Numbered from the whole stretch's first letter, positions 2,087-50,967 are shown. The stretch is DNA of 63,689 bases, filler included, from Stramenopiles sp. TOSAG23-6 (GCA_900128565.1; 10 parts of 10 records of this genome joined end to end with filler, not necessarily neighbours in it); one strand, 5' to 3'. Numbers and translations: made by a program. Notes: a model not told the origin generated them from the sequence alone.

Positions 2087-2428
2087 ATGAAAAACAAAAA
2101 ATTGAAACGATCTTTTTCAATGTCTAATATTCCTAAAACAAATCCAACAATTTCTACAATTTCTACAAATCCAACCATTGTGGTGACACAATTTCAAAAC
2201 ACGAAATATCCAACAATTGTTGAACAATTTCAAAACACGAAAAAACGGAAAAAAAATGTTTTACCTGTTGACAAAAAATGTAAAGAAAAAAATAATTCTA
2301 CAAATCTAGAACAAGGTATTCAAAATCTTTTTGAAGAAGGCTATAAAATTTATTGGCTCTGTTGTACGTTTTTGTTCTTGTATGAAAATTTTGTACCTAA
2401 CAAAAATAACAAAAATAACAAATTTTTA

Positions 2429-2503
<75 letters not shown>

Positions 2504-4061
2504 CGTACTATATTTTGTACCTAATGAATTTTTTAGTTTTTGTTGAATTTCACAATTTATTTTGGCCACTTGGCATAAAAAAGGAAAAAGCAAAAGGTAA
2601 ACTTATGATAATAGCTTCAGCTATTCTTGGTTTTACAATGGCACAAGCGTATTGTTGCTTTAAAGGTTGGTATATATGTATGTTTTATTTTTTTTTAATT
2701 TTAAATTTGAAATTGAATTTTTTTTTTCATACGAAATTTTGTACCTAACAATTTTTTTTTTTTTTTAATTGTATTTTTTTTTTTGGTTTTCATACGAAAT
2801 TTTGTACCTAACAATTTTTTTTTGAATTTTTTTTGAAATATTATTCTACAATACATACCCGATGAATCATAAAAAAGCATTTCAATTATTTCTGAGTATG
2901 TACGTTTTCAAATATATTTTCTGTATTCTTATCAAAAAAAAATATTTTCATACGAAATTTTGTACCTAACCAAAAAACAAAAAAAAATCAAAAAAAAATC
3001 AAAAAAAAACAAAAATGTATTCTTATCAAAAAAAATTTTTTTTCAAAAAATTTTTGTACCTAACCAAAAAAAATCAAAAAAAATCAAAATTTATATTTTG
3101 TACTACACAGTAAACACTATCGATATGCTCAGTGTTCCCTAGGCACGATGTATCTTTTATTTTTTTTTTTTTTCGGTAAAAAAAAAATCGAAGTTTTTTT
3201 TTCGGTAAAAAAAAATCGAAGTTTTTTTTTTCGTACGAAATTTTGTACCTAACAAATTTTACAAAAAAAAAATATTTTTCACAATACATGTACTTGGCAG
3301 GGCATGGCGTCGCTGAGAATGACACGGAAGCACTTAAATGGTATACTAAAGCAGCAAAATCAGGTCATTCCGAAGCTCAATATTTGCTAGGGGATTGTTA
3401 TTTTCATGTACGTTTTTGTATATAATTTTCATACCTAACAAAAAATTATTATTTTTTTTTTTTTTTTAACAAAATTTTTTTTATATATAATTTTCATACC
3501 AAATTAAAATCATAATTTTTTTTTTTTAACGAAATTTTTTTTATGTATCATTTTCATACGTATAACAAAAATAACAAAAATAACAAAAAATTAATTTTTC
3601 TTTTTTTACAAAAATATTACATATTGTTTTGTATTCAATGTTTATACCAAATTAAAATCATAATTTTGTAACAGTATTACTAACAAAATTGTCAATTTTT
3701 TGAAACATATTTTGTTACTAAACAGGGTATAGGTGGTTCTAAAAATTATAAAGAAGCAATAAAATGGTTAAGTATAGCTGCAGCTCAAGGCCATGTAGAA
3801 GCTCAGTATACATTAGGACAATGTTCGTTTTTCGTGTAAAAAAATATTTTTTCTTTTTTTTTTTTTTTGAAAAAAATTTCATACCTAACAAAAAAAATGA
3901 AATGTTTTGAAATACTTTTTAATGATATATGTTATTATAAAGGATCTGGGGTTGTTACTGATGATAATGAAGCCTTCAAATGGTATACTAGAGCGGCAAA
4001 TGGAGGTCATTGTACTGCACAAACTATTATAAAANGATTNGAAAAAANCACTATNACATGA
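2087..4061 (+). CDS. SEL1-like repeat protein, 7 exons; start uncertain
   Basis: SEL1 repeats (YLAGHGVAENDTEALKWYTKAAKSGHSEAQYLLG; GIGGSKNYKEAIKWLSIAAAQGHVEAQYTLG; YYKGSGVVTDDNEAFKWYTRAANGGH) join in frame after removing introns 2364-2560 (ends AT), 2678-2856 (AT), 2900-3110 (AG), 3150-3289 (AT), 3408-3725 (AG), 3823-3930 (AT). Confidence 0.8.
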
Positions 4062-10584: not shown

Positions 10585-10853
10585 TTATTAATGCAAAGAA
10601 TGTTTCACTTTGGAATTAAAATTTTCATTTTTTTTATCATTTGCATATTATACAAATTATACATAAATTTTGTGGGCTAATGTATAACGAAGTTTGTCGG
10701 AAGAAAAAAATGGGTAAGTAGAGTCGTAGACTGGTATATACTATGAAAAATATAAAGGCGTGTTTTATTAATCTTTAACATCAAAAATACTTCAACAAAA
10801 CTTGTATATCTCTTTTCAAATCAAGTTTTTATGCAAGACACATATTCATCACA

Positions 10854-12185: not shown

Positions 12186-12997
12186 TTCTTTCTTTCTTTG
12201 TTTCTTCTCTCTAGCTTATGTAAACAGTAGACTCTACTAGAGCTAGGTAAACCCTAAAAAAACTGTACACCAAAGAAGAATCAGTTTTNNNNNNNNNNNN
12301 NNNNNNNNNNNNNNNNNNNNNNNNNNNNNNNNNNNNNNNNNNNNNNNNNNNNNNNATACGAAATTTCGTACCTAACAATACCACAAATGTCATGCAGAAA
12401 AATATTGTTCAGTTTTCGTGTTATTTTTTTCTCCGGGTAACGTACTACTTTAGAAAATTTAATAATGACATGACAGTGAGAGAGACACACACGCGTACCT
12501 CAATATACGTAGTCTCTCCATCGATAAGAAGAAATCCTCAGCAAAAATTATCTTATGACGGCTTCTTCGAATACTTCAAGCTACAATGAACGTGGCGGAT
12601 TACGTAACCGTGTGCAAACTAGCCAATACAATAGCTGTAGGTCTAGACTACGCCGTGAACGGTCGTTTCCACAACTTGTAGATCTTGCGCAAAGTCGTGG
12701 ACGNNNNNNNNNNNNNNNNNNNNNNNNNNNNNNNNNNNNNNNNNNNNTTAATTAATTAANNNNNNNNNNNNNNNNNNNNNNNNNNNNNNNNNNNNNNNNN
12801 NNNACGTTTTCATCATGAATTTCAAATTTATTTTTTTTCATACGAAATTTTGTACCTAAGAAAAAAAATATTTTTTTTTGAGTTTTTATTCATTGACGTT
12901 TTCATCATGAATTTCAAATTTTCAATTTTTTTTTAATGGGGAATTTTGTACCTAACAAATGTTTTGAATTTTTTTTAAATATTTTTTTGTAATACAT

Positions 12998-13416
12998 CTT
13001 TGTGTTGAAAAAGATTCGAAGTGGTATTTCAGATAGAAATGAAATCTGCAATTCCGTTTGGTTTTCTACAAAAGAACATATTTTAGATTATGAGTGGTGT
13101 AATATGGCAATTCATTCTATGAGTCAATCGGGTCCAGAAATTACAAATTGGACAAAACTGGGTTGTTATAAATGTATGTTTGATTTTTTTTCAAATTTGT
13201 TTTTTTTTTCGTACGAAAGTTTGCACCTAACGAGTTTTTTTTGAAATACTTTTCCAAAACACATCTGAATCCTACGGTGCCATGGAACTCATCCAGCCTT
13301 GTCCTGAGCAAGCAGTTTGTAGTGAATTAAGAGATTTAAAGGATAATCAATTCTGTTGGACACCAGTTACCGATTTTAATGATGAAAATATGACAAAAGA
13401 ACGAATTTGGAAGGCA
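12998..13416 (+). CDS. Two exons of an uncharacterised Cys/Trp-containing protein
   Basis: Exons join in frame as GCYK-SESYGAMELIQPCP across family intron 13174-13264, which ends AT. Confidence 0.5.
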
Positions 13417-13511
13417 GTATGTTTTACTTTTTTTTATATTTCGAATTTATTTTTTTTCATACGAAATTTTGTACCTAACGATTTTTTTTGAAATATTTTT
13501 TTACAATACGG

Positions 13512-14271
13512 TTCTTCTGGGTGTGAAGTTGCTGTGGATAAATCGAACATGATTTTGCCACGATATAAAGTTTTGCGTAAGAAAACAAGAGAAGGTGCAT
13601 GGGAAGTATCTCAGCTAAATTTTCCTAAAACAGATATTTCTTTCTACAGGCACCAAATATGTATGTTTTACTTTTTTTCAAATTCGAATATTTTTTTTTA
13701 TAAAAATATTGTACCTAACAAATTTAAGTTTTTTTATTTTGAAATATTTTTCCAAAATACATTAGAGGCTGCGAGAGATGCAAAAGAAACAGTTTGTTGT
13801 TGTAGGGCAGAAAATGTACCTCCAATGGGTTCTTCGTTTACTCTTCCTGATGGAACACAAATTCAACTAACAGCTGAGGAAACAACATCAATTCCAGAAA
13901 TGTTATTCAAATCAGATATGATAGAATCATTAGGAATTTTAGAAGGATCAGTACCTTTACAACATTTACTACATAATACTGTAAGTAGTTGTGATCCAGA
14001 AATACGTAGTGAATTGTTACGTAGTATCATTATTGCTGGTGGCGGTGCTTTATTACCAAACTTACACCGTCGTGTAGCAAGTGAATTGCGTCTTTTGTTA
14101 CCATCGTCTTATAGAGTTAGTATTGTTACTCCTGGAAATTTGGGAAGAAAGTTTGCTCCATTTATAGGCGGATCCATTCTATCTTCGTTAGGTTCCTTCC
14201 ATCAGTGTTGGGTTTCTAAACAAGAGTATGATGAACATGGTGCTTCTATAGTAAATACAAAATGTCATTAA
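13512..14271 (+). CDS. ARP4: Actin-related protein 4 (ARP4/BAF53-like), C-terminal half
   Basis: ILPRYKV...FTLPDGTQI...IPEMLF...SSCDPEIRSELLRSIIIAGGGALLP...FIGGSILSSLGSFHQCWVSKQEYDEHG; intron 13661-13762 (GT...AT). Confidence 0.8.
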
Positions 14272-14353
14272 TATTATTAGTGTACGGGATATTTTATAGG
14301 CTATCTTTATTGTCAAGCAATAAATATTAATAATATTTAAAAAAGGTAAAAAC

Positions 14354-16416
14354 TCAATCTGCATCTCTCATTCCTTCAGAATCAGAATCAGAAGGTGTTT
14401 TCTCAACGTCATTAACAACAGCTGTTTCTTCAATGACGTTACCTTTATCATCATATTCTGGACAATACATTTGATTGATTCCAAGTTCTTCATTTTCCTC
14501 TTCTGTTCTTTCGTAATCTTCATTAACAATAAATTCATCTGGAATTGGATGAGTTGGGTTATATACCCAACTACCAGCGGAAGGATCCGATAAAATGACC
14601 GTGAAATCCATTTCACCATTCACTGCCTTGTTAATTTGACTAAAAAATTCTTCAAATTTTTGACGTGATTCTACCGGAGCTGAATCGCCCATGTAAAATG
14701 AAGATACTTCCTTTATTTGATCCCGTGACTGTGTTAGTAACCCTTCTACAGTTGTGTAAATTCCGCCAAGCGTACCACGATTTAACTCCAAACCAATTTC
14801 CGGTACAGCTACGTGACAGTCACAAGATTTCAAGACATCTCGTAGTAAAATATCCTTGGCATTTTCTCTTGTCACATGGATGGTTGTTCTTTTCCCCTTT
14901 TCTTTAATAGCACCACTGGTTTTTACTTCAGCATTTTTGTATCCACAATGAGGACATACAAGACACATTAACATAATATCCTGAAAATGAGGAATGTTTG
15001 TGATGGCCATTCGGTTTTCAGCTTGTCCACTGCATATGTATTATAAAAAATTATGTCAAATTAAAACTTTGTTAGATATGTTAATTAAATTTGGTACAAT
15101 TTTAACAATTCATTTCAAATCCATGATTTATGATTGAAATCCATGATGTAATGGAAAACCTACACAGGACATTTCGTGGGAAATCGAACATCAGTGTTAT
15201 TTCGAGAATCACAATCGAAATACATTCTTTCAATATCTTCCTCGGTAACTAATTTACCAATACGTTTATTTCGCTTCTCTGATAAACGATCACATAACTC
15301 CTTTTGAGCCTTTTTTAATTCATTCTCATCATCATGTGCCGCAGCTATACAACCAGTTTTTTCATCCTGTTCTTGAGAACGAGTATATGTATTGTGAAAA
15401 AATATTTCAAAAAAAAAAAAACATAAATATGTTAGGTACAAAATTTCGTATGAAAAAAAAATTAAATTAGAAATTCATATAAACATACACGCTGTAACTA
15501 CACAATTTGGGTCAGCTTCAGGTGAATTTGGATTTTCAACAGCTGCAACTCCTGAACAATCATCTAAGATAATATCAAATGGTAAATAATCTTCATGTCC
15601 AGTTGCACTAAATGCAAGTTTAGACACCATTTCATTGATTCGATTTAATTTTTCAATTTCGTCGTCTGTTGGATTGTTACCCGTTGACTGCTTCATATTT
15701 TCTGCTGCTTCACTCAAAGCAACAGTCATACTCTGTAGAACACCTTCAAGTGTTGTTAGACGACCATCTGATTTTAAACTAGCAGGTACTTGAATACCTA
15801 TGCTAGGTATTTCAATATCTGTAAATCGTGACAACACAACTTCTCTGTTTAAGTCTGACTTGGACAAAACTGTAATCACAAGTTTTACACCTTGTTCTTT
15901 GATGTCACCAGAAGGTTTTGCTTCATTGTTGCGATGACCACAAGCCCGACACTCGAAGGAAGAAATTATAATTTGCCCAAAAAATGGATATTCCCGCACT
16001 AAAAGTTTTGTCAAACCATTTTCATGACACTTTGGGCAGACACTCTCTATTTCCATTGTATCCTCAAAACCGTCACCATTTTCCTCACCATTTTTCTCCT
16101 TGTCATTTTCTTCGTCACTACTCTCCCATGCATTTTCACAAAACTCCTCTTCTTCATCGATTTTATCATCCTCAGTTATTTTTGATTCCTGAGATTCTTC
16201 AACAGGAATATCCAAATAATAACCAAGACCTTCCTCTCCAGTTCGAAACACAAAACCAGGTCTAGAACCAATAAAGGATTCGCATGGGTCAAACAACTTA
16301 TAAAGACCTTCACCTTGGGCATGACTTTTATCACGCCATAAATATCCAGGCTTTGTTGATTTGTAATCCGGGCAAGGATAAAACACGGGTTGATCATGTC
16401 CTATTGGAGCTGCCAT
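14354..16416 (-). CDS. ZPR1: Zinc finger protein ZPR1, 3 exons
   Basis: Two ZPR1 modules (ESVCPKC...SFECRACGHRNNE; FPTKCPVC...VCPHCGYKNAEVK...GGIYTTVEGLL); introns 15387-15488 and 15036-15163, both GT...AT. Confidence 0.92.
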
Positions 16417-16605
16417 GAGATAAATGTAGAAGTATTCGATGAGTAGAACAGTTAGTTGTACTGTACTTGTCAGTACCCGTAGCACAAGCACAGAAGCGTG
16501 TGCAATTATTATTTTTATTGCACTGAATTTAATTACCGGGTACCCGAATTATAATTATTGTTTTGGAGAATGTTATTCTTTTGTCAGAGACATCTTTTTG
16601 AATTG

Positions 16606-18702
16606 TCAGGTTTCGTCACAAAGAGGTGAAAATCCCAATTTTCCTGTTTTAATATCATCAATAATTTTTAAAACACCAGCAATGCTCATGAGAATAACAG
16701 CACCAATCATTACAATTACTATAGAAAAGACAATAAATGATGCATTGTTATACTTTTTGACTAAATAAATCATAATCTTCTGACCTAAAAAAGTGGCTAT
16801 TAAAGAAGATACTGAAAATGCAATAGAATGTATTTTGGAAAAATATTTCAAAAAAAATTAATTTGTTTTGTTAGGTACAAAATTTCGTACGAAAAAAAAA
16901 TCAAATTGAAAAAAAAAAAACGTACATAATCTTCGAGTAACATTCCAAGAAATATAAACTGCACTGTTGCTGAACCAGATGTTATCATCACAGTTGTTGC
17001 ACTGGTTGCTTGAGTATGTATTTTGGAAAAATATTTCAAAAAAAATTAATTTGTTTTGTTAGGTACGGAATTTCCTATAAAAAAAAAATTCGATTTTTTG
17101 TAAAAAAAAAAATAAAACATACACAATTCGGAGACATTCCTAACTCAAGTAATAAAGGTCCCATTATCATACCTCCCCCGATTCCTAAAAAACCTCCCAG
17201 TATTCCTGCTATAGCAGATAAAAATGGATATAAAAACATATTTTTACCCTTCCAATGTATTTTGGGAAAATATTAATTTTTTTGAAATATTATTGTTAGG
17301 TATGAAATTTCGTACCAAAAAAAAAAAAAAAATGAATAGAAAAAACAAACATGTATATCACCCTCAGCAAATACATATGCAACTCTCGTCTTTTCTATAT
17401 GGAGCTTCTTTAAATCAAAACCTACGACACTAGCGACTAGCAACATCGAAACTATGAGTTGTGAAAAAATATTTCAAAAAAAATGTTTTTTTTTTTAGGT
17501 ACGAAATTTCGTACGAAAAAATAAATTCGAAATTGAAAAGAATAAAAAACATACATTAAAGCTCCAGATAAAATCCAAAACTGTACACTACAATTTTCTA
17601 CTCCGATAATACTAGCTGACCCAGCTTTCCCTCCACGCAACAAAGACAAAATTACTATAATAATAAACACTATAAATACTTTGAGTAAAGGTATTTTCTG
17701 ATCTTTTTCACTGTTTCTAATTTTGTTTCTCGATACTTTTTTCTCAAAATGTTCTGGTGAATCTGATTCTATTTTGTTTGTCTTGGAAAGTTTTTTCTCA
17801 AAATGTTCAGGTGAATCTGATTCTATTTTGTTTGTCTTGGAAAGTTTACCATTTTTTTTACTTTCTAACATTACAATTGTTGGTTTTGAATCTTCAGAGC
17901 TAACGTTACAACAATTTTCAATCGGTACTTCAGTCTGATTTTTAACATTATTATAATTTACATGATTATCAACATGTAAATCTTTTTCATGCTCAGTACA
18001 AGTAGGTAAATATTTTTTTGAATTGTGCCATGTTTTTATACCTTTCAATAAAGTACGAAAAGCACCATATCCAATACATATAATTAAGCAAGTCACAATT
18101 GTCCAATCTGGCATTACTTTATTCATCATTACACCAATTACTGTACCAGCAAGCATTAAAGGTTCCAGCATCAGTACACAGTCATAATCTATCAGAGGTC
18201 GATGATGTTGTGTAGGATGGTGAGAATTATAATTTATACATAGATTCACTAAACTTCCACCAAATATCATAGCTTGTGAAATTGGTACAGCTTCCTTTGG
18301 GGAAAACCCAATCACCAGTATTAGCACTGGTACAAATATACCACCACCACCTAAGCCACCACCGGCTGCTAGTGCAGCTGCAAAAAATAGAACTACCATT
18401 CCAACTATTAAATAAGCATTTATGTTGTCAAGCAATCTTCCTCTTGTACAAAGACCTTTTCTTGTTTTGTCTGACCCTGAAACAATTGAAGAAGCTTTCG
18501 CCTCTTTGCAGACGAAACCTTTGCCACATTCGGTTGGCGACCCAACAATACAATTAGTGCACTTACTCTGAAAACAAACTTGACCCTTGTCATGTGGTTG
18601 GCACTTGTTATGAATATCGCTTGGTGAAAGACTATCATCACACTCTGCTGCAGTTCTTATTAGCAGTATAGAAGCAATGATTAGAGCTGTAGGACGATAC
18701 AT
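16606..18702 (-). CDS. TauE/SafE sulfite-exporter family membrane protein, 5 exons
   Basis: AAGGGLGGGGIFVPVL, RPLIDYDCVLMLEPLMLAGTVIGV, GGFLGIGGGMIMGPLLLELG; introns 17454-17554, 17255-17350, 17016-17122, 16828-16925, all GT...AT and all frame-restoring. Confidence 0.9.
17016..17122 (-). mobile_element. Representative introner-like element (about 50 related copies across the window)
   Basis: GTATGTTTT...T-run...GAAATTCCGTACCTAAC...GAAATATTTTTCCAAAATAC-AT; the same three blocks recur in unrelated genes, essentially always in the sense orientation of the host gene. Confidence 0.8.
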
Positions 18703-19035
18703 TTCACGACCATTTAAAACTCAAACTAAGATTTTAGAACGTCAAGTTGAGACTATATTTTCCTCGACGGTTACGTTTAAAAACGTATATTCTTGAGAAA
18801 TCCGAAATCCAGGCCAAAAGTAAGTACTGTATTTTTCTATAGTCCACTGCAAAGTGCAATTATTGGTACAGTCCAACGCACTTGTCAGTTTACGACAGTA
18901 TCGGCCCTATATATACAATAACTATCTCCACCATACTACCCCACCCATCCACAATGCCACGCTTTGCTATTTATACCCTAATGATGGCGATAAAGTCACA
19001 CATCACTATTATTTAGGTATTTATGTGTTTGAGGA

Positions 19036-19094
<59 letters not shown>

Positions 19095-19243
19095 TTNNNN
19101 NNNNNNNNNNNNNNNNNNNNNNNNNNNNNNNNNNNNNNNNTTAATTAATTAANNNNNNNNNNNNNNNNNNNNNNNNNNNNNNNNNNNNNNNNNNNNAAAA
19201 AAAAAAAAAAAAAAATAGGGAAAAAATTTCCTATGAAAAAAAT

Positions 19244-19289: not shown

Positions 19290-21655
19290 ACAATTTTATG
19301 AAATTGGTGAAATAATGAAAATGTACAAATGTGCTTAAAAATGAATCACATAAATCTAATGTTGTAGAGGATGATGAACACAATGATGTTAATAATTCAA
19401 TGATTGTGCCAACAGTGCTACTTGGCCATTTATATGACAAGTCAATTGGATTATGAATGTGTTCCTATATTTGTAGAAAATATTTCAAAATTTAAAAAAA
19501 TATTTTGTTAGGTACAAAATTTACTACGAAAAAAAAAATGAAAAAAAAATGAAAAAAAAATTCCAAAATTTTTTTTAAACAAAAGATAAAAAAAGATAAA
19601 AAAAATATTCTTATTACAACACGTACCAACATTTTTGGTGTCATATGCCGGGGACACAAAACTGTTTTCATAATTGAATATAAAATGTTTTGAACTCTTT
19701 CATCACTTTTTTCAATTTTTTCACTTTTTTCAATTTTTTCAATTTTTTCAATTTTTTCTTGATGTTGTCGACAAAATCGAACATGAATTATTTTTTCACG
19801 CCCATTACCGGGTATCAGCTGGTCAGGCACATTTTCTATAGTAAAACCTAGTAAAGATGCAATTTCTCTACTTATAGTAGGGTCATACGGTAATGTTTCA
19901 ATAAGCATGTATTTTGGAAAAATATTTCAAAAAAAATCTAAAAAATTTCGTTAGGTACAAAATTTCGTACGAAAAAAAAAATTCGATTTTTTTGTAAAAA
20001 AAATAAAAAAATAAAAAAATAAAACATACATACTATCAAGACAATCAGCAACAGATAAAATTTGTTCGGTAAAAATAAAAGGTTGAAATTGTTTTTTTTT
20101 TTTTTTTGAAATTTTTTTTTCTTCTTCTTTTGAAATTTTCGTTTTTTTTGGACTTTCTTGATTAGGATTAGGGTTAGGGTTTTTTAATGCAGGTATGCAT
20201 TTCATTACTAAATTCCACATCCCTACATAATCAATGACATTACTTGTATCAATAGCATGATATCCATTACTTCCAGGTTGTTTTAAAGGAATTTCCATAC
20301 AATGGTAAAAAAATATTTGAAAAAAAAATTCAGAATTTTTGTTAGGTACGAAATTTTTTTACGAGATTTTTTTTACGAAAAAAAAAAAAAAAAAAAAAAT
20401 GTAGGATAAAAAAATACATGCAATTACCAAATGTAAAAAAACAGCGTATTGTATTGTTTTTGACAGATTTTTGTAGACGAATAAATAATGGTGTCCAAAC
20501 ATTTTGAAGCGTTTTCGCAAATGAAGGTGAACCCACCATATTATCGATTGCATTGCTTGTATTGGTTGTAGTAGAGTTAGGGTTAGGGTTAGGGTTAGGG
20601 TCGTCGAAAATTTCGTCACTAGTTAGTGATGCAAAAGCGCCAACAGGCCCTTGACATTCTAAATATATGGCATGCTGTTTGATCCCATCGATATCATCAT
20701 TCGATATTTCAAAATTTTCAAAATTACATGTAGAAAGTATTGTGAAAAAATATTTCAAAATTTACTATAAAAAAAAAATTTGTTAGGTATGAAATTTTTT
20801 TACGAAATTTTTTTACGAAAAAAAAAAATTTAAATTTGAAATTTAAATTTGAAATTCATATAAAACGTACAACATCAAATAGAGTTGGGTTTATATACGT
20901 CACTGTAGTGTTTGTGAGGGAAGAGTCAACGGAGGAAACCCCATGTTTAAGCCAATCTACAAGAAGATGTGATAAACGTCCATGACCTGCACTTTGGTCT
21001 GAGAGTCTTTTTGCACGTACATAAATTATGAAAAAATATTTCGAAAAAAAAAATCTAAAAAAAATTGTTAGGTACAAAATTTCGTACGAAAAAAAAAATC
21101 AAAAAAAAAAAATTCAAAATTGAAATGAAAACGAACTTGTAATAATTTTTTTGTGTTTGTTTGTACAGATTTCAAAGATAAAATCGTACGCCATGCAATC
21201 CAATGTTGTTTCATAGCACTTAATGTCTTTTTATCTGTTCGAATCCATGAAGGGATTTGTTCAATTAATTGACACAAGGTTTTAAAAAGTTGAGAAAAAG
21301 TTTCTTCATTGAGCAAGACATCACTCCAAATAGCTGTTGCATATTGTATACTCAACTCTCCTTCAGATGCCAAGGTGATCAGTACCACATTTCGTGCAAG
21401 GGCAATCGAATTTAAGTCATTGAAATGTAGTTCAACTCGTGCTTCTGATGGAATATTTATCAAAGTGGTGAGAGGGTTTCGTATATCACCAACTCCAATC
21501 CAAAGCAATTTGATGGGTGTTGCGTTACATAAACTTTGTACTTCTTCTTTTGTTAGCAAGCTGCGAGCAAATGTATTTCCAATAAGAAAGCCACTCATCA
21601 CACTATCGACAAGCTTACGTCGTGCAAGACTAAATGGTTTAGAGTACACCATCAC
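19290..21655 (-). CDS. DUF4470-domain protein, at least 6 exons, 3' end truncated
   Basis: LLWIGVGDIRNPLTTL...LHFNDLNSIALARNVVLI DUF4470 signature; family introns end AT, TT (20735-20870), AT, AT, AG. Confidence 0.7.
20577..20600 (+). repeat. Interstitial telomere-type (TTAGGG)4 inside an exon; one of about 12 such tracts
   Basis: TTAGGGTTAGGGTTAGGGTTAGGG, read as DPNPNPNPN on the minus-strand gene. Confidence 0.85.
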
Positions 21656-21921: not shown

Positions 21922-22642
21922 ATGGTACGTGACACTTCAACACATGTGGGAGGTTGTCATCCATGATATTTGGATGACAACCTCCCACGTAGTTATATTT
22001 CGCTTTTATTTACTATCCCTATCCCACTTCGCCTTTCGTTAGTGTTACACGAACCCTAGTGTTACACTAACGTCATGGTTGAGACCGTTGTGCGATTGAA
22101 CTTCCTTCGGGAAGCTTTCCTCATCGAGTATATGTGGCTAAATCATTTATTCACCATCACAAACCCTTTATATATACCCAAATATACATGCTTTAATTGT
22201 AAAGGAAGGCGAGTTTCAGCACATTCTCCGTGTTATGAACACTAATCTTAACGGTAAGGAGAAAATCATGTATGCTCTGACAGCTATCAAAGGCATTGGT
22301 CGTCGTTTTTCCAACTTAATTCTTAAAAAAGCTGAGATTGACCTCAACAAACGTGCTGGTATGATGTCTCAAGAAGAGATCGAAAAAATCGTAGCTATTA
22401 TTGAAGATCCTCTTCGTTTTAAGATCCCAAAATGGTTCTTGAACAAACAGAAGGATCCTGTTACTGGTAAATGGACTCAACTACATGCTCAAGGTGTTGC
22501 TGGTGGTCTTCGTGAAGACATTGAACGTCTCAAGAAGATCCGCTCTCACCGTGGTCTCCGTCATTACTGGGGACTTACTGTTCGTGGTCAACATACAAAG
22601 ACAACTGGGCGTAAGGGCAAATCTGTAGGAAAGAAAAACTAA
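21922..22642 (+). CDS. RPS18: 40S ribosomal protein S18 (uS13); ATG-only first exon, intron 21925-22189
   Basis: [33 protein letters not shown]...[31 protein letters not shown] at 21922-21930. Confidence 0.95.
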
Positions 22643-22925: not shown

Positions 22926-25382
22926 TTACTCTTCAAAAGTTGTACATTGACTAAATTGACTGATAAAAGAAATATGACTTAAATCACTCAAATGATCATT
23001 ATGCAGTTGCTCATTTCTATCAATAAAACATGAAGTAATAAAATCTCTAATAATTTTGATACTCTTTAAAAGTTCAAATAATTCAGTGATTTCATTAGGG
23101 TTAGGGTTATTAGGGTTAGGGCTATTATTTCCATTATTTTCAATGCATTTTGAAGAATTCGTATTTAATTTCGTACCAATTTGTTGAAGAATTTCACCCC
23201 ATAATTGTAGAACATACGAAATCTCAACTGAATGATCAAAAATTTCATCATTTGTTGTTGTACACGAATTATTTTGTGTTTTTTGTGTTTTTTTTGTTTT
23301 TTTTGTTTTTTGTGTATTTCGTGTTTTTTGTGTCTTTTGTTGTTTTTTGAATTGATTCAATGCAGAGTTTGATGTTTTTTTAGAATCATTGGAATTATAC
23401 TTCTTTTTATTAGGAGTTTTTATACGAATAGGAAGAGATTTTATATCCAAATTATTCTTTTGAAATATTGTACCATTAGGGTTAGGGTTAGGGTGTAATG
23501 AGTGATTTTCATTTTTTTCTAATGTTTGCCATTCCTTCTTAAAAACATCAGGATCTTGTTTTTGAAGTGAAATAATATCATCCTCAACTTGTCTATATTC
23601 TTTAATCAATCCATTGGATATTGAATTCCAATGAGATTGCATTTGACTCATTTGAAGTGAACGATGACGAAATAATCTACTTTCATGTATTTGGGAAAAA
23701 TATTTCAAAAAAAATTTTGAAAATTTGTTAGGTACAAAATTACGTACGAAAAAAAAATTCGATTTTTTTGTTAAAAAAAAAAATAAAACATACAGCAAGA
23801 ATTTGTGAAATGATAATATTTCGTGCAACTTGCAAAGAATATTGACTTGACTCAGTTCCATCTTTACTTTTCATACTAGTGTTTTGATATGATATTGAAT
23901 TGTTAGGGTTGGGGTTAGGGCTATAATTTTTTTTTTTTCCATCATTTTTTGTATCATTTTTTAAATCATTTTTTGTATTATTTTTTGTATCATTTTTCAA
24001 ATCATTTTTTAAATCATTTTTTAAATCTTTTGTTAATTCAGAAAATGAAAACTTGACATGAGGGAAACGACCTATATTTTGGAAAAATATTTCAAAAAAA
24101 AATCTAAAAAAAATTGTTAGGTACAAAATTGAAAAATATTTCAAAAAAAAATCTAAAAAAAATTGTTAGGTACAAAATTTACTATAAAAACCAAAAACCA
24201 AAAACCAAAAAAAAAAAAATCGAATTTGAAAAAAAATTGAAAAAAAATAAAACAAACTTGTGAATTTTTTTTCCAAGACTATAGAGGACAAATAAGAAAA
24301 AAGCATATACATTTTTTTTTCAATATCTATTTTTTGTTTTAATCCATTTTTCAAGAATACCAAATGCTTTGGGAGTATACCATCAGCTACTAATGTTTTT
24401 AAAGATTTTTGAGCGACGCGGTTGAAACTGCTAATTTGGAATTTATCTGTACATGTATTGTGAAAAATATTTTTTTTTTAATAAAATTTGTTAGGTACGA
24501 AATTTCGTACGAAAAAAAAAATAAATTCGAAATTGAAAAAAAATTGAAAATAAACGTACATGATCTTTCATCAATATTATTCTCCTCCAAAATATTATCC
24601 ATCCAATGTGCAAGTTTAGTTAATTTTGCCTCTTTTAATTTTTGACTTTGGTCTCGTTTTTTCATTTCTAATTTTTTTCGGATTCTGGGGAGTGAGACTT
24701 TCCTATATACAATGAGAAATTTTTCTGTCAGACTGTTTTCATTTTCTAGAGATATTTCGTGTTGTTGTTCGAATACTTCATTTTGTTTTTGATGACTATT
24801 TTGTGTACTACGTCTGGTGTTCAATTCTGATTTAACCAGACTATACGGTTTGAAAATTTTTCGAATTTTTTTTTGGTATTTTTTTTTGTTAGGTACAAAA
24901 TTTCGTATGAAAAAAAAAATTTCAAAAAATTTCAAAAAATTTCAAAAAAAAAAAAACGTACATTTCAATTGTATCATAAAATTCATTCCAACGACAAAAC
25001 CCTTCATTAAATGAATCACAAATTTTGACTAATTCTTTTTTTTGTGAATTTGGTAATTGAATATTAATCATTCTACAAATTTTATCAATGGCAACACGAA
25101 ATACTTTATTTGTCATACACTTTTTTGGAATTGATTTTGCTAAATCCATGTATTTTGGAAAAATATTTCAAAAATTTTCTAAAAAAAAAAATTTGTTAGG
25201 TACAAAATTTCGTACGAAAAAAAAAATTCATACAAAAAAATATCAAGAATTCGTGATAGATTATTTTTACATTGAAACTCAACAACAAGACCAGTGACAA
25301 ATATCCGTAAGGCTGTATCAAGAGGTAATTCATCACTAAGACTTCCTTGCATTGATTCACATGTGGATAGGATTGTACTAAC
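22926..25382 (-). CDS. Uncharacterised low-complexity multi-exon protein, 5' end truncated
   Basis: Exons join in frame across family introns with acceptors near 25148, 24841, 24453, 24082 and 23685. Confidence 0.5.
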
Positions 25383-25588: not shown

Positions 25589-28823
<3,235 letters not shown>

Positions 28824-32012: not shown

Positions 32013-34727
32013 TTGGCCAGAAAGAAAATTTGTGTAATGATAAAACAAATGCGGAAGCGTCAGGAAATTCTGGAACAATAGTGACTACTGTACGTCGTGG
32101 AAGTGGAACCTTTGGTGATGATAATAGTAGTGATGATTCACAAAATAGCGATGACTATTCTTTGCAGTTGAAGCGTGGTACATCTGCTGGTTTTGGTAAA
32201 GGTGTCCGTTTTGAAGAAAATGAAGAATGTGATACAATGGCGAATACAGTTCAAGAGAATCATGTGAAACCAAGAAATAATAATTGGCATTTTAGAGGTT
32301 TTGGTAGAGATGACCAATCTAGTGTGTCCGATTTTAGAAACGGGAGCAGTGGAGGAGGATCTCATAGCGATGTAGGCGGTGCACGCAGTCGCTTTGGTGC
32401 AAACAGTACTGAGAGTGGATACGAATGTGTCGATGTACGTTTTCATAGATGAATTTCAAATTTTGTTTTTTTGGTAGAAAATTTTATACCTAACAATTTT
32501 TTTTTTTTTTTTTGAAATATTTTTCCACAATATATGATCAGAGTGAATCAATGAGTGATGATTCAGGCAATGGTGAACCTCAAGTAGTGTCTGTTTTTGT
32601 ACCTGAAGATTGGCTTGAAGGACAACATATCCTAGTGACCATGACGGATGGTCATAGATATACTCTCGCTGTTCCTCCAGGAATGTACGTTTTACTTTTT
32701 TTTTAATTCCAATTTTTTTTTTTTAGTTTTCGTACGAAATTTTGTACCTAACAATTTTTAGTTTTTTTTTTCAAATATTTTTCCAAAACACATTGGTCCA
32801 GGAGAATCATTTCAAACAGAACTTCATAGTCACATGCCTGAACCTGAGGTTGTTTCTGTTCCTGTACCTTTAGACTGGCAAAAAGGGCAACATATACTAA
32901 TTAGCATGACTGATGGTCGGAGATATACCCTTGCCGTACCCCCTGGCATGTACGTTTTCATTATGAATTTCAAATTTATTTTTTTTTTAATACGAAATTT
33001 TGTACCTAACATTTTTTTTTTTTTTTTGAGTTTTTATTTCGATACGTTTTCATTATGAATTTCAAATGTATATTTTTTTTCCATAAAAAAATTTCACATC
33101 TAACCAATTTAAAAAAAAACAATTTTTTTCACAAAACATTGGTCCTGGTGAAGTATTTCAAGCTCATTTACGGCCAAATAAAAATGGTGAATATGAAGAA
33201 GATAATAGAAGTAGTCAGGAAAATAACGAGGAAGGTACAGATAATCCTAACCCTAACCCTAAAGATACGAATGAAAATCGTGCAGATAAATCTATTCAAG
33301 ATATTGATGATATTGAAATAGACGGTAAACGAGATGATAGCCATATTGATGATAAAGATAATCATTTGGGGGAGGTAAAACAACAAGGAAATTCGGAAGT
33401 GCTTTCAAAGACACCATCCTGTACATTTTCATTTTGATTTCCAAATTGTTTTTACTAAGAAAATGGAAAATTTTGTACCTAACAAATTTTTTAAATCAAA
33501 AAATATATATAAATCCATTCCAGCATCCATTGCTGTAGTGTTGCTCATTTGGAAACCATTGTTTGTCGTTTTGTTTCCGGGTTATGTTTACACTGGTGAC
33601 CTCACAAAGGTGTTTCTCTTCCAAGGTTGTATTGGAGGCTCCACACAGACAGTGTTCGTTTTTTGCCTGCTGGAAGTGTTAATCTCTTGTGTTTTGCTCA
33701 AAGACATTGTTGTTCCTTCTGTATTTGGTGCTTTGTGGGGGAAATTTACTCATCTAAAACGAAGAAAATTAGTAGGCTTCTGTGTGAAAATTATTGTCAG
33801 AGCTTCATGTTTCGTGCAAATCGCATTTTTAGTAGCTCCTCAAGTCGACTTGGAACGTGGATTATTCGGTAAATTTAATATAAAAAAATCCAACATGGTC
33901 CTTTTAAACAAACACACTGCAATGACATGTGAAGAAGCTGGCATGTCACTCACAGATGCAGTTGCTATGCGGGCTTGGATTTTTGCCCGTGACAATATTA
34001 TGGCCGTCATGATTTGGGAATTGGCGAGTATTCCAGAACTACCTCTAGATGCTTGGTTACATCATTTATTTGTCATTCTAGGAGTTTGTTTGGGCACAGA
34101 TCCTCAAGTTATGGCTTCACAAGAAAAGGTACAACCATTTATTGATAATGTTTCATTTTTCTTAATTTTAGGTGGTTCAGGTTCGTTTTCATCATGAATT
34201 TTTTTACCTATTTTTTTTTTCATACGAAATTTTGTACCTAACGATATTTTTTTTTTTTAATTTTTCACAATACAGTTGCCGGATTAGTAGAAAGTTGTGT
34301 TTTAGGCTACCATTTAAATAGTAGCAAACCTGATCGCCAGGCTATTTGGATTCAAAGAAGTATTGCCATTCAATCAATTATGGTGTCTATTTTATTTGTT
34401 ATCCTCCCTTCTTTTGTAATCATGAAAAGTTGGCAACATTTTGGGGCACTTGCATGTACGTTTTATTTTTTTCAATTTCGAATTTATTTTTTTTTCGTAC
34501 GAAATTTCGTACCTAACAAATTGTACAAATTTTTTTTTTTTCACAATACATACGGTTACATGGCCTTAATTCTTATTTTAGTGGCTGTAGAAATTAGAAT
34601 GATTATAGTGAAATTTTCAATTGTGAAACATGCAAAAAAAAAAGCTGCAAATTTACTTCAAAGTGATTCAGAGACGAATCAGACAGATATGAGTGAAATG
34701 TCAAATGTACAAAAGAAATTTGAATGA
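32013..34727 (+). CDS. Multi-exon membrane protein with two VSVxVPxDWxxGQHILxxMTDGxRYTLAVPPGIGPGExFQ repeats; 5' end truncated
   Basis: Frame restored across six family introns (five end AT; 34181-34275 ends AG); several hydrophobic segments and an LHHL motif. Confidence 0.6.
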
Positions 34728-35654: not shown

Positions 35655-37254
35655 ATGATTCTAGGATCTGGTTCGATTGACCGTTTTGCGGCATCTGCCC
35701 CATGGGCAGTATTTCCACGCAAGCGACTTGAAATTAGTTATAGTGATTATGCTCATGGCTTATATCAATGTGTATCATCAAAGGAAGAAGATCGTGCGGA
35801 AGTCTCGACTAAAATTGAGCGCTATTGGTCCCCGCATGGAAATGGTTTTGTTTGCTTATCAGTACGCACAGGATTTGATTTATACTTACAGGCACTAAAT
35901 CTTCCTCATGGATCTGAAGTGTTGATGAGTGCGGTAACAATCAAAGATATGGTTCGAATTGTTGAGCATCATGGACTTATCCCTATTGCAATCGATATGG
36001 ATGAAGATGTACTAGTTCCTAGTACTGAATCTATTTTATCCGCGTTGACTCCACGTACTAAGCTTCTTGTATTTGCCCACTTATTTGGTACTATTGTAGA
36101 TCTTACTGATATTGCATTACTTTGTCAAAATAATGGGATATTATTTATGGAAGATTGCGCTGAAGCATATGCTGGACCTTCCTATAGAGGCCATCCAAAT
36201 GCCAGTGTGACCTCCTTTTCATTTGGAACTATCAAAACTTCAACAGCTTTAGGTGGTTGTTTAATGACAATTAAGGATCCATTTATTCTTGAGAATATGC
36301 AAAAACTTCATTCTGCTTATTCTCCTAGACCTAGAAGTGTATTTACAAAAAGAATAGTAAAGTGTAGGTTTACTTTTTGAATCTCACAAGTATTTACATT
36401 TCATTGACAATTTTGAACCTAACCATTGTAATTTTTCTTCACATTTTCACAACACATATGGGTTATATAACTTCGTATCTTCCCCCGCATTGTTTGGTTT
36501 AGCAGTGGCTGCAATGGATGCTGTAGGATTAGATTATGATACTGTTATTACTAATAATTCTCGAGGCTTCCCTGCCGAAGGTGATGCCTTTTATGACCTC
36601 ATTCGATTTCAACCATCAATCCCTTTACTCCATTTGATGTGGCGACGTCTTCATACGTTTGATGAAAAATTTCTAGAAAGTAGAAAAGAACGAGGTAAGG
36701 TAGTGGCAGAATATCTCCAAACCCTTCAAGGTGTTACAGTACCTGGTTCAGCCGTGAAGACTCATTATTATTGGCTTTTTCCAGTTGTACTTCATGACGA
36801 TATAGATTTAAAAATGGTGTGTTCAAAAATGTTAGAAAAAGGGTTTGATGTCACACCAGGGGCAACCCAACTTGGATGTGTTACAAGCTATGTGTCTAGA
36901 AAAGTTTTAGATAACCAAATGTTTCAAGATAATTTCCCATATAAAATGTCCAAAATGATGCCTCGAGTAATTTATTTACCGGTCCAACCTCTTATGTACG
37001 TTTTCACAATTAATTTCAAATTTATTTTTTTTCGTACGAAATTTTGTACCTAACGATTTTTTTACAAAAAATATTTTTCACAATACATGCCAAAATGGTC
37101 TTTGCGGTTACTTCTTCATTCTTTTACTACTGCAGTTGTTCAAGCAAGCCGAGACCGAAGTGCTCAAGATTCTAAAAAAATAGATCCTACTGGATACGTG
37201 AAGTCTTTCATTCATGAAGATGATGAATGGGTAGGGCCAAAGTCCAGGTTGTGA
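35655..37254 (+). CDS. DegT/DnrJ/EryC1/StrS-family PLP aminotransferase, 3 exons, C-terminal SRL
   Basis: LLVFAHLFG, FMEDCAEA, FSFGTIKTSTALGG; introns 36364-36457 and 36996-37088 (GT...AT); spliced product ends GPKSRL-stop. Confidence 0.85.
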
Positions 37255-39123: not shown

Positions 39124-41154
39124 ATGAATCAAGAACAACAAAATAACAGTGGTAAGAATGATTCGGAAATACAAGTGAAGCAAAAAAAGGTTAAAGAACT
39201 AAAGAAATTGTATCTGCAATGGGTTGACACCATGTCTTTGACTTTGTTTTTCATTGCCATATTCTTCATATGCGGGAATATAATGTCCCATCATAATCCT
39301 GACGGTCTTCCGGGCACTGGTGACGAATACCTTGGGAATATTGAATTGTTAAACAAAACAACAAATAATGCCATTCCAGAGTTAAATCAGAGAGGCCATG
39401 ATTGCCTTTCCGTTTCACCTTTTCTTGGTAAACAAAATGGAACACTCGAAGGGGAGTGGGTATGGGTTGATGGGCTTGCGACTACGACAAGACTACTTGC
39501 TGGTGATACCCAACCCACTAAAGTAAATGTAACCGGTAAAATTGCAGTTGCAAATTTTGGGGCTTCTCTTGATCATAAACCTGAATTTGTGTGTTTTCAT
39601 CATGATTTTTTTAACTAAATAATTGTTTGTACCAAAATTCGTACCTAACGAATTTCGAATTCTAAAATTTGTTTTTCACAATACATGGTGGAGGATTTTT
39701 TTACTCACACCAAGAAATGATTCAACACTTACATTCCGAAGGGGCTATCGGCGGCTTAATCTTGGCAAATGATTTTACAATTGAGGGCATAGGCCAGGGC
39801 CAGGGTTTTCATACTCCATATGAGTATCTTGAAGTTGATCAACCTGATATCTTTTTGGTTTGGATTACGGACTTTTACTTATTTCCAGGTGCACCTACCC
39901 ACAATGCGCCAATTCCAAAATACTTCTATGAAGAATTAGCCAAAAAGAGAGACAAACTTTTTGTTGGTGAGAGTAAGATAAGAATAAGTATCTTTGAAGA
40001 AGATCAGAAAACAGGAATTGTCGCCAAAAATCCATTTTTATGGTGCCAAGCCCACATTCTTTTGCCTTTGATGGGCATGTGTGTAATGAAAGTAGGTTTT
40101 AATACATTGGACGAAATGAACTTAAAATCGAATGCGATAAATGCTCCACGGGTCTCAATTTGGCTTGCAATTTTCACCTGTGTACTTCATGTCATCAAAT
40201 CGCCGATGCTTGGGGTGGGACTTTCGCACAGACACCTAGGAATTTGGGGTAGCGCTTATGGTTTTGGTTATAATTTCTTTAGTCCTTCCGGTGTAGCATT
40301 TTTCAATAATATCTTGGTCGGAATTTCTGTAATGGAACTAGTCAATGCTACTAAGAGAATGAGAAAACAAGCTCAAATTTTTAAAAAGTACAGAACTACT
40401 CTAATAATATCATTTATATTGACAGTCCCTCCTCCTTTTGTCATAACTTTCATTATGATACTTGGATTAATACCAATATATTATTTCGTAGTCTTTAGAC
40501 TCTTTGAAGATACATTTGGAGGTTTTTTATCAGGTGTATATTTTGTTGTTCAATTTATGCGACTTCTTCAAGTTATGGGTGAAAAACAGAGGAAAATGAA
40601 ATTAATGAGACGATCTCGAAATAAAAACAAAAAGAATGATAAACATTCTGCACAAATGCTAAAGCTTCAGCATATGACGTATTGGCTTGGCATCAATGCA
40701 TTTTTTCTACTTATTGCAACTATATTTAATTTAGGTACCTTCCTTCTATTTACTGGTGATGGATATACTATGGAAACGTTCTCGCATGTTTTTTGGTATA
40801 TAAGATATGTATTTCGAAAATCTATCGATGTAATCCTTGCATACTCAAAGATTAGATTGTTTGATCAAAGTGGTTTTCATCGGCGTAAGACTATGTACGT
40901 TTTCATCATTCATTCCAAAATTTTACTTAAATTTATTTTTTTTCGTACCAAAAGTTTTTGTACCTAACGATTTTTTTAAACCAAAAAAAAAAAAAAATTC
41001 ACAATAAATGGATAAAGTTGCCCAAACAATTTCAGGGAAAAGTCGACAGATGTCTCGTATGCTCAGACTGTCACAACGTAAAACTGATGAACAAATAGTT
41101 AAAGAAACTAAATTATTGCTTCAGAAATCTCAAGCAAGTGAAGAAAAGGCATAG
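39124..41154 (+). CDS. Multi-pass membrane protein with a PA-like ectodomain, 3 exons
   Basis: NVTGKIAVA...EGAIGGLILA PA-like motif and about 7 hydrophobic helices; introns 39589-39686 and 40895-41009 end AT and restore frame. Confidence 0.6.
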
Positions 41155-42780: not shown

Positions 42781-44481
42781 TCATGATTTCCTTTTATTCA
42801 CAGAGAAATTCTCCATCACAAATTCATTATTGTCGTTCCCAGTGCCTTTAGGCTGTGCCTTAAGAGCTCTATTTAACATTTTTCGTACAGCATTTACATA
42901 AAGACACCAAGCTTGGCGTGCATCTGAGTTTGTTTCTATTGTATCTAGAGAGCTGTTTTGTACAAGTGCATCAAACAATATTCCAACTTCGTCAATATCT
43001 ACAACATAATCAACGCGATTAAGTCGATCTCGATTAGTCAATGACACCCAATTATCTTTTGAGAGAATCGGATCCATGTATTTTAGAAAAATATTTCACA
43101 CAACAAAAAAAATCGTTAGGTACAAAATTTCGTACGAAAAAAAAATCGAATTTGAAAAAAAAAGTAAAACATACATCAATGACGTCACAAGTTCTTCAAT
43201 AAAATTTCTAGTGTCCTCTTTTAATGCAATAGACATACGTATTAATCCTCGAATAATTAGCGGAAGTTTTTTATATATTTTGGGAAAATATTAAAAAAAA
43301 AAAAATGTTAAATATTTAATTTTTTTTTTTGAATTTGTACAAACTTCAATGTTGAAAACCTACACCTAACCGACCCCCAAAATTCTTTCTATCTGATTTA
43401 TCATCAGCGAATTCATTTTGTGTGTCTGAATTAGAATTCGAAGACTCAACATTTCCATTCATTGTTTTACTACCGTGTATTGAATTACCAGTAAGATTTC
43501 TTGTAGCATCCATATTTAAGTTATTGTCATTTTTAAGGGTATCACTTGACAAATTCGAACTTGTAATAGTTGTGTTTAAATTATTTGAAGCGTTATTTGA
43601 ATACTCATTTTTCGAAACTATTACGCCTGGCTTTTGTATCAGTGTATCATATATTCTAGTTGTTTCTCTCGTATAAGCAGCAATACTGACTCGATTGGCA
43701 CTCATCGCTGCACGAAATTGCCCCAGAGGAATAAGAAGAGAATTACGGATAGCAAATGAAAATTCGCCCTCGTGTATTGTGAAAAAATATTTTTTTTTGT
43801 AAAATTCGTTAGGTACAAAATTTCGTACGAAAAAAAAATTTCGAAATTGAAAAAAAATAAAACATACGTCTCCACGAATTATATTATTGTTTTCGTATCG
43901 ACTTTCATGTACAGCTGCTGTGTTTTGGACATGCCCACCTCGATTTCGACGAAGAATTTCAAAACCTCCACGAGCTCCAGCTTTTCCATTATTAGAAAAG
44001 TAAGAAATCATGTATTGTGAAAAAATTTAAAAAAAAATAAATTGTTAGGTACGAAATTTCGTACGAAAAAAATAAATTCGAAATTCGTTATGAAAACAAA
44101 CATGACATCAGCAAAATACTTAAAGTCCTTCCACTTAAACGCTTCAAATCGACGACGTGTCGTAAGCCGAGTGACTCGTATGGATGGTTTCAATCTAAAC
44201 TGATGGTGTAAAAGGAAGCAAGCACATGTATTGTGAAAAAATAAAGTTGAAATTCGAAATGGGTCGAAATATTTGTTAGGTACAAAATTTCGTATGAAAA
44301 AAACATAAATTTGAAATTCATAATGAAACGTACAAGTATACGTATGAGCTAAATCATGGGGAAGGCAGAATGTAACTCCAATAAAAGAGCAAACATCATC
44401 TGCATCTTGAAAAAATGGGTAATCAATGCAAGCGTCAGCAACACGCTGTATGTAATGTAAACACATATTCTTGTGGTACAA
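42781..44481 (-). CDS. Uncharacterised multi-exon protein, 5' end truncated
   Basis: Six exons join in frame across family introns (four end AT; 43772-43867 ends AC). Confidence 0.55.

Positions 44482-50317: not shown

Positions 50318-50967
<650 letters not shown>

Follow-up and report, generated by a model that had tools for sequence, protein, structure and literature searches.

Introns that begin with GT and mostly end in AT, carried by an introner-like repeat in Stramenopiles sp. TOSAG23-6

Can the introns of a natural genome routinely end in something other than AG? The terminal AG is among the most constant signals of eukaryotic gene expression, and few natural genomes drop it (Fritillaria, Amoebophrya and euglenozoans), each of them instructive about the flexibility of the spliceosome. 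The question is raised by a 63,689-nucleotide stretch of DNA (the window) from Stramenopiles sp. TOSAG23-6 (GCA_900128565.1), for which a first-pass annotation had proposed that most introns, best seen in a ZPR1 zinc-finger gene and a gene for a TauE/SafE-family membrane protein, end in AT. Our analysis confirms the observation, with excision from RNA at the AT end seen for two of the introns. They are probably introns of the major spliceosome that arose from an introner, with a 3' cut that uses the duplicated insertion target, in a host that routinely splices GT..AN introns.

The window has a base composition of about 32% G+C and consists of about 10 separate draft scaffolds chained by falling size (6304 to 6259 bases); genes located on separate scaffolds are not adjacent, and several scaffolds start or stop within the intron repeat described below. 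Judging by its protein relatives, the window comes from a heterotrophic marine stramenopile: RPS18 shares 91% identity with a EukProt entry with MAST in its label and about 70% with all others, and the best organism-named matches of a DegT-family aminotransferase gene are oomycetes, at 42–47% identity. Among public runs, the stretch is present in two small DNA runs, both from one organism, and in seawater metagenomes and metatranscriptomes.

On the minus strand, the ZPR1 and TauE/SafE genes are both interrupted by AT-rich segments of about 100 nt that run from GTAYGT to ..AATACAT. Over the window, we catalogued 44 short introns of 86–190 nt (Table 1) and, apart from these, an unrelated intron in RPS18. 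Every one of the 44 begins with GT and 43 contain a CTAAY box, in agreement with the GT donors and CCTAAC-like box of the first-pass annotation. The donor hexamers are GTACGT (17), GTATGT (15), GTTTGT (3), GTAGGT (2), GTTCGT (2) and five others found once each, so that 32 of the 44 have a GTAYGT donor; position +5 is G in 42 introns and position +6 is T in 42. The CTAAY box lies 31–63 nt (median 42) upstream of the 3' end, a spread which implies that the cut is not placed by its distance from the branch, and T occupies positions −14 to −12 in 39–41 of the 44 introns. The three intron phases are represented by 14, 14 and 16 introns. The 3' ends are AT in 36 introns, AG in five, AC in two (one of the two ambiguous) and TT in one, close to an earlier hand tally of about 40 AT, 7 AG and rare others. 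Seven further copies are truncated by scaffold ends or Ns, and their phase is not assessable; by consensus position, six of them end in AT and one in TG. With respect to the hallmarks of U2-type introns, the 5' GT with its extended consensus and the branch box with a pyrimidine tract are thus present, and the terminal AG is missing from 39 of the 44.

Removal at the AT end was assessed using reading frames, RNA and homologues. In 33 copies, both ends were set by consensus only (5' score of at least 7/9 and 3' score of at least 9/10), leaving the frames unused. Excising GT..A[T] joined the longest flanking open frames in 31 of these 33 copies, where chance would give 1/3; one of the remaining two has two open upstream frames, of which the junction fits one, and the other is blocked by upstream Ns. 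Contigs from the public runs were placed on positions 12804-19096, with the DegT and RPS18 genes and the AG, AC and TT introns lying outside this span, and the joints reported here are those among the matches listed, which are dominated by cross-copy joints of the repeat. A 220-nt polyA metatranscriptome contig (X7 record 19) corresponds to 15274..15164 followed by 15034..14927 with 0 mismatches; it skips the second ZPR1 intron (15036-15163) and retains the TGCAG that holds the next AG. In a second sample from that study, a contig (X9 record 25) corresponds to 13104..13171 followed by 13263..13361. It omits 91 nt (13172-13262), which gives the same product as excising 13174-13264, because AT stands at both ends. 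Metagenome DNA contigs (X3 records 1 and 4) cross from exon into intron at both of these RNA-tested places, record 4 doing so at the ZPR1 intron. Presence in DNA together with removal from RNA was therefore found for two introns, the other 42 not being among the matches listed. These contigs also speak to two checks proposed with the first-pass annotation, on retention or splicing at nearby AGs and on removal at the DNA level: both introns are skipped in RNA, the next AG of ZPR1 is retained, and the introns are kept in DNA. As for a third, the alignment to orthologues, seven junctions in the ZPR1, DegT, actin-family and RPS18 genes fit their homologues without gaps.

This evidence bears on two readings in which no RNA splicing would be involved. 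Programmed elimination at the DNA level, similar to that of ciliate internal eliminated sequences and with the RNA mirroring a somatic genome, could be imagined for elements that are short, AT-rich and numerous, and whose precise loss along with one duplicate resembles transposon excision. It is hardly credible, however, given that the two X3 contigs cross exon-intron borders, that the element is present in the assembled DNA of every gene examined, that the GT and the branch box favour RNA splicing, and that the borders are GT..AT, not TA..TA (keeping one TA would break the ZPR1 frame, as worked out by hand); no joined DNA form was seen among the matches listed, which alone says nothing. The other reading is an artefact, in which pseudogenes or mis-assembly around the repeat would produce AT ends through forced frames. 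Draft scaffolds often break inside the repeat, one junction (13417-13511) looks mis-joined, and scaffold 2 is an inverted self-duplicate, but the 31 of 33 frame-blind joins in phase, the joins carried by RNA contigs at two introns and the seven gap-free junctions make a general artefact highly improbable.

The junction that looks mis-joined belongs to a repeat copy near an actin-family gene. Its flanking frames fail to join at the consensus end, and actin similarity is found in the exons to its right and in none of the upstream open reading frames (ORFs) to its left. An RNA contig begins at 13510, preceded by 79 unmatched letters. The two sides may be different genes mis-joined through the repeat. 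Scaffold 2 (6405-12703) is of a different nature: minus-strand position 7623 equals plus-strand position 11542 and minus 6737 equals plus 12371, an inverted self-duplication that looks like a whole-genome-amplification chimera.

No AG occurs inside 21 of the 44 introns. Among the 39 non-AG introns, splicing at the first downstream AG leads to a frameshift or a stop in 24, and the 15 in-frame cases correspond to the chance level; a downstream AG is not an alternative 3' end for the AT introns. If these introns are cut after AT throughout, the choice of their 3' site is AG-independent. The four examples put forward in the first-pass annotation have identical coordinates in our independent catalogue, and each behaves as it had described. 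In the second ZPR1 intron, the AT splice yields FPTKCPVCSGQAENRM, which aligns with the CPxC motif plus eight residues in four of four homologues, while the AG located six bases downstream is in frame yet deletes Cys-Ser of CPVC. In the TauE intron 17016-17122, the next three AGs (+7, +14 and +46) all cause frameshifts. In the intron 13661-13762 of the actin-family gene (PF00022, E 9e-43; called ARP4 earlier), the next AG creates a stop codon at the junction. The DegT intron 36996-37088 is free of AG, and splicing at either of the next two AGs would break the frame.

Protein conservation across the junctions supports the same cuts. The split codon T/AT of the first ZPR1 intron encodes a Tyr common to two of the three homologues aligned at that position. 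Both DegT junctions (..FTKRIVK/YGLYN.. and ..YLPVQPLM/PKWS..) are gap-free against eight homologues, and the actin-family junction 13660/13763 is seamless against the closest relative, P0246. For the TauE junctions, an exon-by-exon Pfam check was made, with exons too short to inform. A public predicted protein from the actin-family locus (P0245, 13661-14268) carries the intron translated as coding sequence. In the large TauE exon, about 60 nt are tandemly duplicated at 17720-17850, and the 19-residue peptide KLSKTNKIESDSPEHFEKK occurs there twice.

Why should so many introns share this end? The first-pass annotation was right that the AT ends are real, but missed that nearly all of the introns belong to a single introner-like family and that their last base repeats the end of the upstream exon. 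An nhmmer profile built from 10 copies retrieved 62 matches in the 63.7 kb, on both strands (E ≤1e-3), and 43 of the 44 catalogued introns, located in at least 20 ORFs, were found through these matches. The repeat is about 100 nt long and AT-rich, and comprises a yeast-like 5' site (GTAYGTTTT), a branch box (..GTACCTAAC), a T-rich tract and then CAMAATAC; three blocks are conserved in a 28-copy alignment, GTAYGTTT (5' end), TTTTCGTACGAAATTTTGTACCTAAC (central) and TTTTYCAMAATACAT (3' end). Immediately before the GT, the exon has T in 38 of the 44 introns, and the position preceding that T site is A in 30. The upstream exon and the intron share their last base in 39 of 44 cases (shuffle mean 32.2, P=1e-5) and their last two bases in 27 (shuffle mean 21.5, P=8e-4); in the remaining introns, roughly 17, the two dinucleotides differ, examples being those at 15488, 17122, 23793, 39589, 57621 and 21136. 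Of the eight non-AT introns, three are exact two-base repeats of the exon end (cag/GT..ATAC-AG, gac/GT..ATAC-AC and gtt/GT..ATAC-TT). Three of the five AG introns are preceded by AT or AA and thus show no exon/intron match, which a later T-to-G change could explain. If the element is followed by a target-site duplication, AT is most likely its preferred insertion target and not an evolved dinucleotide signal. Its copy number and the duplication suggest that the element may be a DNA transposon.

Other observations concern the abundance and structure of the repeat. In the repeat bins of 12804-19096, the summed contig depth is hundreds- to thousands-fold above that of the exon bins, in DNA and in three RNA runs, as would be expected of an element present in very many copies, although depth itself is not a copy number. 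A search of the metagenome contigs with the 20-nt repeat core returned 0 loci, even though a match would be expected in each of this organism's contigs a few kb long. Four introns are composites of two copies arranged head to tail (12806-12997, 2678-2856, 24072-24257 and 32950-33139). An internal junction motif, ..GAGTTTTTATT.., is common to two of the composites and a partial copy at 49968-50033, which hints at a longer parent element.

These data can be accommodated by a simple mechanism. Each copy of the repeat would bring its own 5' splice site and branch box, and its insertion would leave, after the element, a duplicate of the one or two bases that end the upstream exon, usually AT. Cutting the RNA at the GT and right after the duplicated bases would remove the element and the duplicate and restore the coding sequence, and the last two intron bases would be whatever the target was, mostly AT and sometimes AG, AC, TT or TG. 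The agent of removal would be the spliceosome, presumably of the major type, making the 3' cut without an AG by reading the ..AAUAC context instead of the terminal dinucleotide. The T-tract and the CAMAATAC before the cut, which falls two bases past ..AATAC, are the obvious candidate 3' signal. As for the earlier proposal, removal at the AT end with relaxed 3' recognition is upheld by the two RNA contigs, the frames and the homologues, whereas an altered spliceosome is something that we only infer.

Several observations weigh against this interpretation or narrow it. Ten of the 44 acceptors were placed with the help of the reading frame, and the RNA support consists of two junctions, both seen in contigs from an assembly and not in raw reads. 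At its ZPR1 joint, the X7 contig has one unplaced letter; a synonymous T>C variant at 15035 in the DNA run X3 could be that letter. In addition, one RNA library yielded a contig (X5 record 13) that continues unspliced into the introns on either side of a TauE exon. The copies of the repeat have a median pairwise identity of only 0.69. The second-last base, taken alone, matches the exon in 31 of 44 introns, which does not differ significantly from the shuffle mean (29.5, P=0.14), and the duplication may be just one base long. The terminal inverted repeats span only 3–4 nt (GTA(T)..(A)TAC); a consensus test found no longer one, its best local match being internal, and no autonomous copy, transposase or empty site was seen in this analysis. 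Finally, the duplication implies that the mRNA would be unaffected by an upstream shift of both cuts by one base or, in 27 introns, by two, so that a one-base-upstream cut is indistinguishable in most introns.

That the cuts are truly shifted, by one base (N-GTA..ACA) or by two (mostly AT..AC), is nevertheless unlikely. With a two-base shift, 26 of the 44 introns would read AT..AC, and A-C is described as isosteric with G-G at intron ends (PMC13326754), but this shift is ruled out at ZPR1, where ..CCTGT is retained in the X7 contig, which matches perfectly as far as 15164. A one-base shift at RPS18 would take the G from the ATG, whereas the GT register leads to the conserved MAL... Furthermore, GTAYGT is already a perfect major-type 5' site, and to our knowledge neither ATGTAY nor TGTAYG fits a 5' splice consensus. 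We take the GT register as right, on the basis of the two loci (ZPR1 and RPS18) and the perfect GTAYGT.

The minor spliceosome tolerates odd 3' dinucleotides, and there is a slim chance that these are U12-type introns multiplied by a mobile element. The GTAT start and the T-run resemble the consensus /GTATCCTTT, but CC at +5,+6, as in the 5' motif /RTATCCTT, is absent from all 44 donor hexamers. A U12 branch site typically lies about 10–20 nt from the 3' end, and the CTAAY box of the present introns is too distant from it. No U11, U12, U4atac or U6atac match was found in the window, where 64 kb is weakly informative, and Rfam searches at gathering thresholds gave 0 matches over the whole window. 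GT-AT is listed among the rare splice-site classes in comparative surveys (PMC1557818), and a massive expansion of minor introns has been reported in Physarum (preprint); the likeness of our introns to odd-ended U12-type introns is limited to the tolerated 3' dinucleotides and does not extend to the 5' consensus or the branch-to-3'-end distance.

Excision could also be independent of the spliceosome, or guided by pairing of the intron ends in the style of euglenids and Amoebophrya. The GUA(U) and (A)UAC ends could pair over 3–4 bp, with the duplicated bases overhanging, and the intron borders of Amoebophrya carry direct and inverted repeats (PMC7789003). RNAalifold, however, predicted 0 conserved pairs in 28 copies, 5' position 4 (C/T) does not covary with 3' position −6 (A), and the conserved 5' GT and branch box differ from the Amoebophrya and euglenid systems. 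We regard structure-guided excision as improbable, and return to spliceosomal introns derived from an introner.

The RPS18 intron, which lies outside the family, is informative about the host. It is 265 nt long, lacks the central block of the repeat, starts with GTACGT and ends in ..CCAAATATACAT. The AT splice produces a MALIV.. N-terminus, agreeing with the MALVV../MSLV.. of the homologues, whereas splicing at the next AG would yield MEGEFQ... This suggests that host splicing, and not the repeat alone, accounts for the odd 3' end, although the intron could be an old, decayed copy of the repeat. We lean slightly towards a wider scenario, a MAST-3-like lineage of heterotrophic marine stramenopiles whose major-type spliceosome may retain a strict GTAYGT 5' site and a CTAAC branch site yet carry out the second step without AG, accepting AU, AC, UU or UG, and in which about four-fifths of the introns would be GT-AT genome-wide after an introner with an AT target flooded its genes. 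The RPS18 intron also contains, at 21946-21988, an 18-bp inverted repeat without mismatches around a 7-nt loop, which might represent a small RNA or a very small mobile element. The RPS18 predictions of the closest relatives (P0005 and P0032) begin at internal methionines.

Among known systems, the closest parallel is with the introner families described in 2022 (PMC9860276), in which the element provides the 5' site and the duplicated target the 3' site, the introns ending in AG. The match between exon and intron ends observed here is the signature used there to call target-site duplications. As in that work, one family accounts for many introns in unrelated genes, and the element is removed with one duplicate, leaving the mRNA length unchanged. 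Unlike those introners, the duplicated target is mostly AT and still serves as the 3' end, and the duplication spans 1–2 bases versus 3–9 in the published families. Introner surveys begin from annotated introns and accept AG or AC 3' ends (PMC12130899), and would therefore miss an AT-ending family.

Two other lineages depart from the GT-AG rule on a genomic scale. Amoebophrya (Farhat et al. 2021, PMC7789003) is also a marine protist in which most introns are off the rule, with repeated introns and short direct repeats over the borders that make these ambiguous. Its introns vary at both ends without a dominant dinucleotide, bear inverted-repeat hairpins of 8–20 nt and fall into many families, whereas here the 5' GT is present in 44 of 44, only the 3' dinucleotide deviates, a single family is dominant, and no conserved hairpin was predicted. 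In Fritillaria borealis (Soo et al. 2026, PMC13326754), the departure is likewise genome-wide and relies on U2-type machinery, with divergent U2AF paralogues recognising the 3' end and weak-site introners as one possible origin; it offers a concrete mechanistic precedent, diverged U2AF paralogues being able to handle non-AG ends. Fritillaria is an animal with <10% GT/AG introns and with 5' ends that are also non-canonical (AG-A(N), cited in PMC7789003), in contrast to the fully canonical 5' site of the present introns. Neither a GT-AT-dominant intron set nor MAST introners are described in the literature covered (main texts; supplements may hold notes): the main text of PMC5778133 uses 'intron' twice and 'splice' never, and that of PMC12614181 uses neither word.

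With textbook 5' and branch sites and only the last base altered, this would be the cleanest case of AG loss, one that isolates the choice of the 3' site in the second step. It would also illustrate a simple route, as an introner with a non-AG target duplication spreads only if the host can splice it. If the wider scenario of a whole lineage holds, a natural major-type spliceosome can do without the terminal G, and loss or change would be expected in the U2AF small subunit, Slu7/Prp18/Prp22 and Prp8. On the practical side, gene finders based on GT-AG fail here, the public-database proteins of the lineage seem damaged by unrecognised introns, and gene counts, "pseudogene" calls and functional profiles of uncultured marine grazers may be distorted.

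Table 1. Introns, genes and scaffold linkers of the window, in order of position; frame test and catalogue are as described in the text.
Feature	Position	Strand	3' end	Remarks
Intron (possible)	2364..2463	+	AT	acceptor inside A-run, weakly defined
Composite intron	2678..2856	+	AT	catalogue
Intron	3150..3289	+	AT	frame test and catalogue
Linker (44 N, TTAATTAATTAA, 44 N)	6305-6404
Linker (same structure)	12704-12803
Intron, GTATGT..AAACACAT	13174..13264	+	AT	polyA RNA contig X9 record 25
Repeat copy ending ..ATACGG	13417..13511	+	AC, GG or GT
Actin-family gene intron, GTATGT..AAATACAT	13661..13762	+	AT	next AG gives junction stop codon
ZPR1 zinc-finger gene, three exons	14354..16416	-		homologues carry PF03367/PF22794; aligns to four homologues
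ZPR1 intron 2, GTAGGT..TAATACAT	15036..15163	-	AT	diverged copy without nhmmer match; X7 record 19
ZPR1 intron 1, GTATGT..CAATACAT	15387..15488	-	AT	phase 1/2 join
TauE/SafE-family membrane protein gene, five exons	16606..18699	-		PF01925, E 2.6e-14 on exon 1
TauE intron, GTACGT..AAATACAT	16828..16925	-	AT	in phase with 40-codon upstream frame
TauE intron, GTATGT..AAATACAT	17016..17122	-	AT	next three AGs out of frame
TauE intron, GTTTGT..AAATACAT	17255..17350	-	AT	frame test and catalogue
TauE intron, GTATGT..CAACTCAT	17454..17554	-	AT	frame test and catalogue
Linker (same structure)	19097-19196
Intron	19465..19626	-	AG (ATATAG)	upstream exon ends TG; acceptor frame-placed
Intron	19907..20029	-	AT	frame test and catalogue
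Intron, ..CATTGTAT	20297..20417	-	AT	catalogue
Intron	20735..20870	-	TT	upstream exon also ends TT
Intron, ..TAATTTAT	21021..21136	-	AT	upstream exon ends AA
RPS18 intron, GTACGT..AAATATACAT	21925..22189	+	AT	not a family member; directly after ATG
Intron	23685..23793	-	AT	frame test and catalogue
Composite two-copy intron	24072..24257	-	AG	acceptor frame-placed
Intron	24453..24559	-	AT	frame test and catalogue
Intron	24841..24961	-	AG	acceptor frame-placed
Intron	25148..25233	-	AT	frame test and catalogue
Linker (same structure)	25482-25581
Intron	25962..26055	-	AT	frame test and catalogue
Intron	28017..28117	-	AT	Ns upstream, so upstream frame not evaluable
Linker (same structure)	31858-31957
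Intron, ..CAATATAT	32435..32535	+	AT	frame test and catalogue
Intron	32685..32793	+	AT	frame test and catalogue
Composite two-copy intron	32950..33139	+	AT	frame test and catalogue
Intron	34181..34275	+	AG	upstream exon also ends AG
Intron	34456..34551	+	AT	frame test and catalogue
DegT-family aminotransferase intron, GTAGGT..CAACACAT	36364..36457	+	AT	gap-free against 8 homologues
DegT-family intron, GTACGT..CAATACAT	36996..37088	+	AT	no internal AG; homologue alignment
Linker (same structure)	38233-38332
Intron, GTGTGT donor	39589..39686	+	AT	frame test and catalogue
Intron, ..CAATAAAT	40895..41009	+	AT	frame test and catalogue
Intron	43076..43174	-	AT	frame test and catalogue
Intron	43772..43867	-	AC	upstream exon also ends AC
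Intron, GTTTGT donor	44010..44101	-	AT	frame test and catalogue
Intron	44226..44333	-	AT	frame test and catalogue
Linker (same structure)	44602-44701
Intron	50666..50766	-	AT	frame test and catalogue
Linker (same structure)	50970-51069
Linker (same structure)	57331-57430
Intron, end CAATACAG	57621..57723	+	AG	upstream exon ends AT; frame test and catalogue
Intron, ..TCATCCAT	57901..58000	+	AT	frame test and catalogue
Intron with CCCTAA-type repeat	58471..58572	+	AT	frame test and catalogue
Intron	58905..58999	+	AT	frame test and catalogue
Intron	59983..60081	-	AT	frame test and catalogue
Intron	62319..62407	-	AT	frame test and catalogue

A search for introns outside the family, by regular expression and reading frame, gave 108 candidates that were mostly noise; the 10574 region and 43288-43363 were inspected, and neither was convincing. 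Telomere-type CCCTAA/CCTAAC runs occur inside ORFs, where they are read as Pro-Asn (20581-20599, 23105-23120, 23486-23492, 23907-23919, 33246-33252, 44979 and 45174), as well as just past the RPS18 stop (22648-22665) and in an intron (58489). These hexamer runs contain CCTAAC, the same sequence as the branch box.

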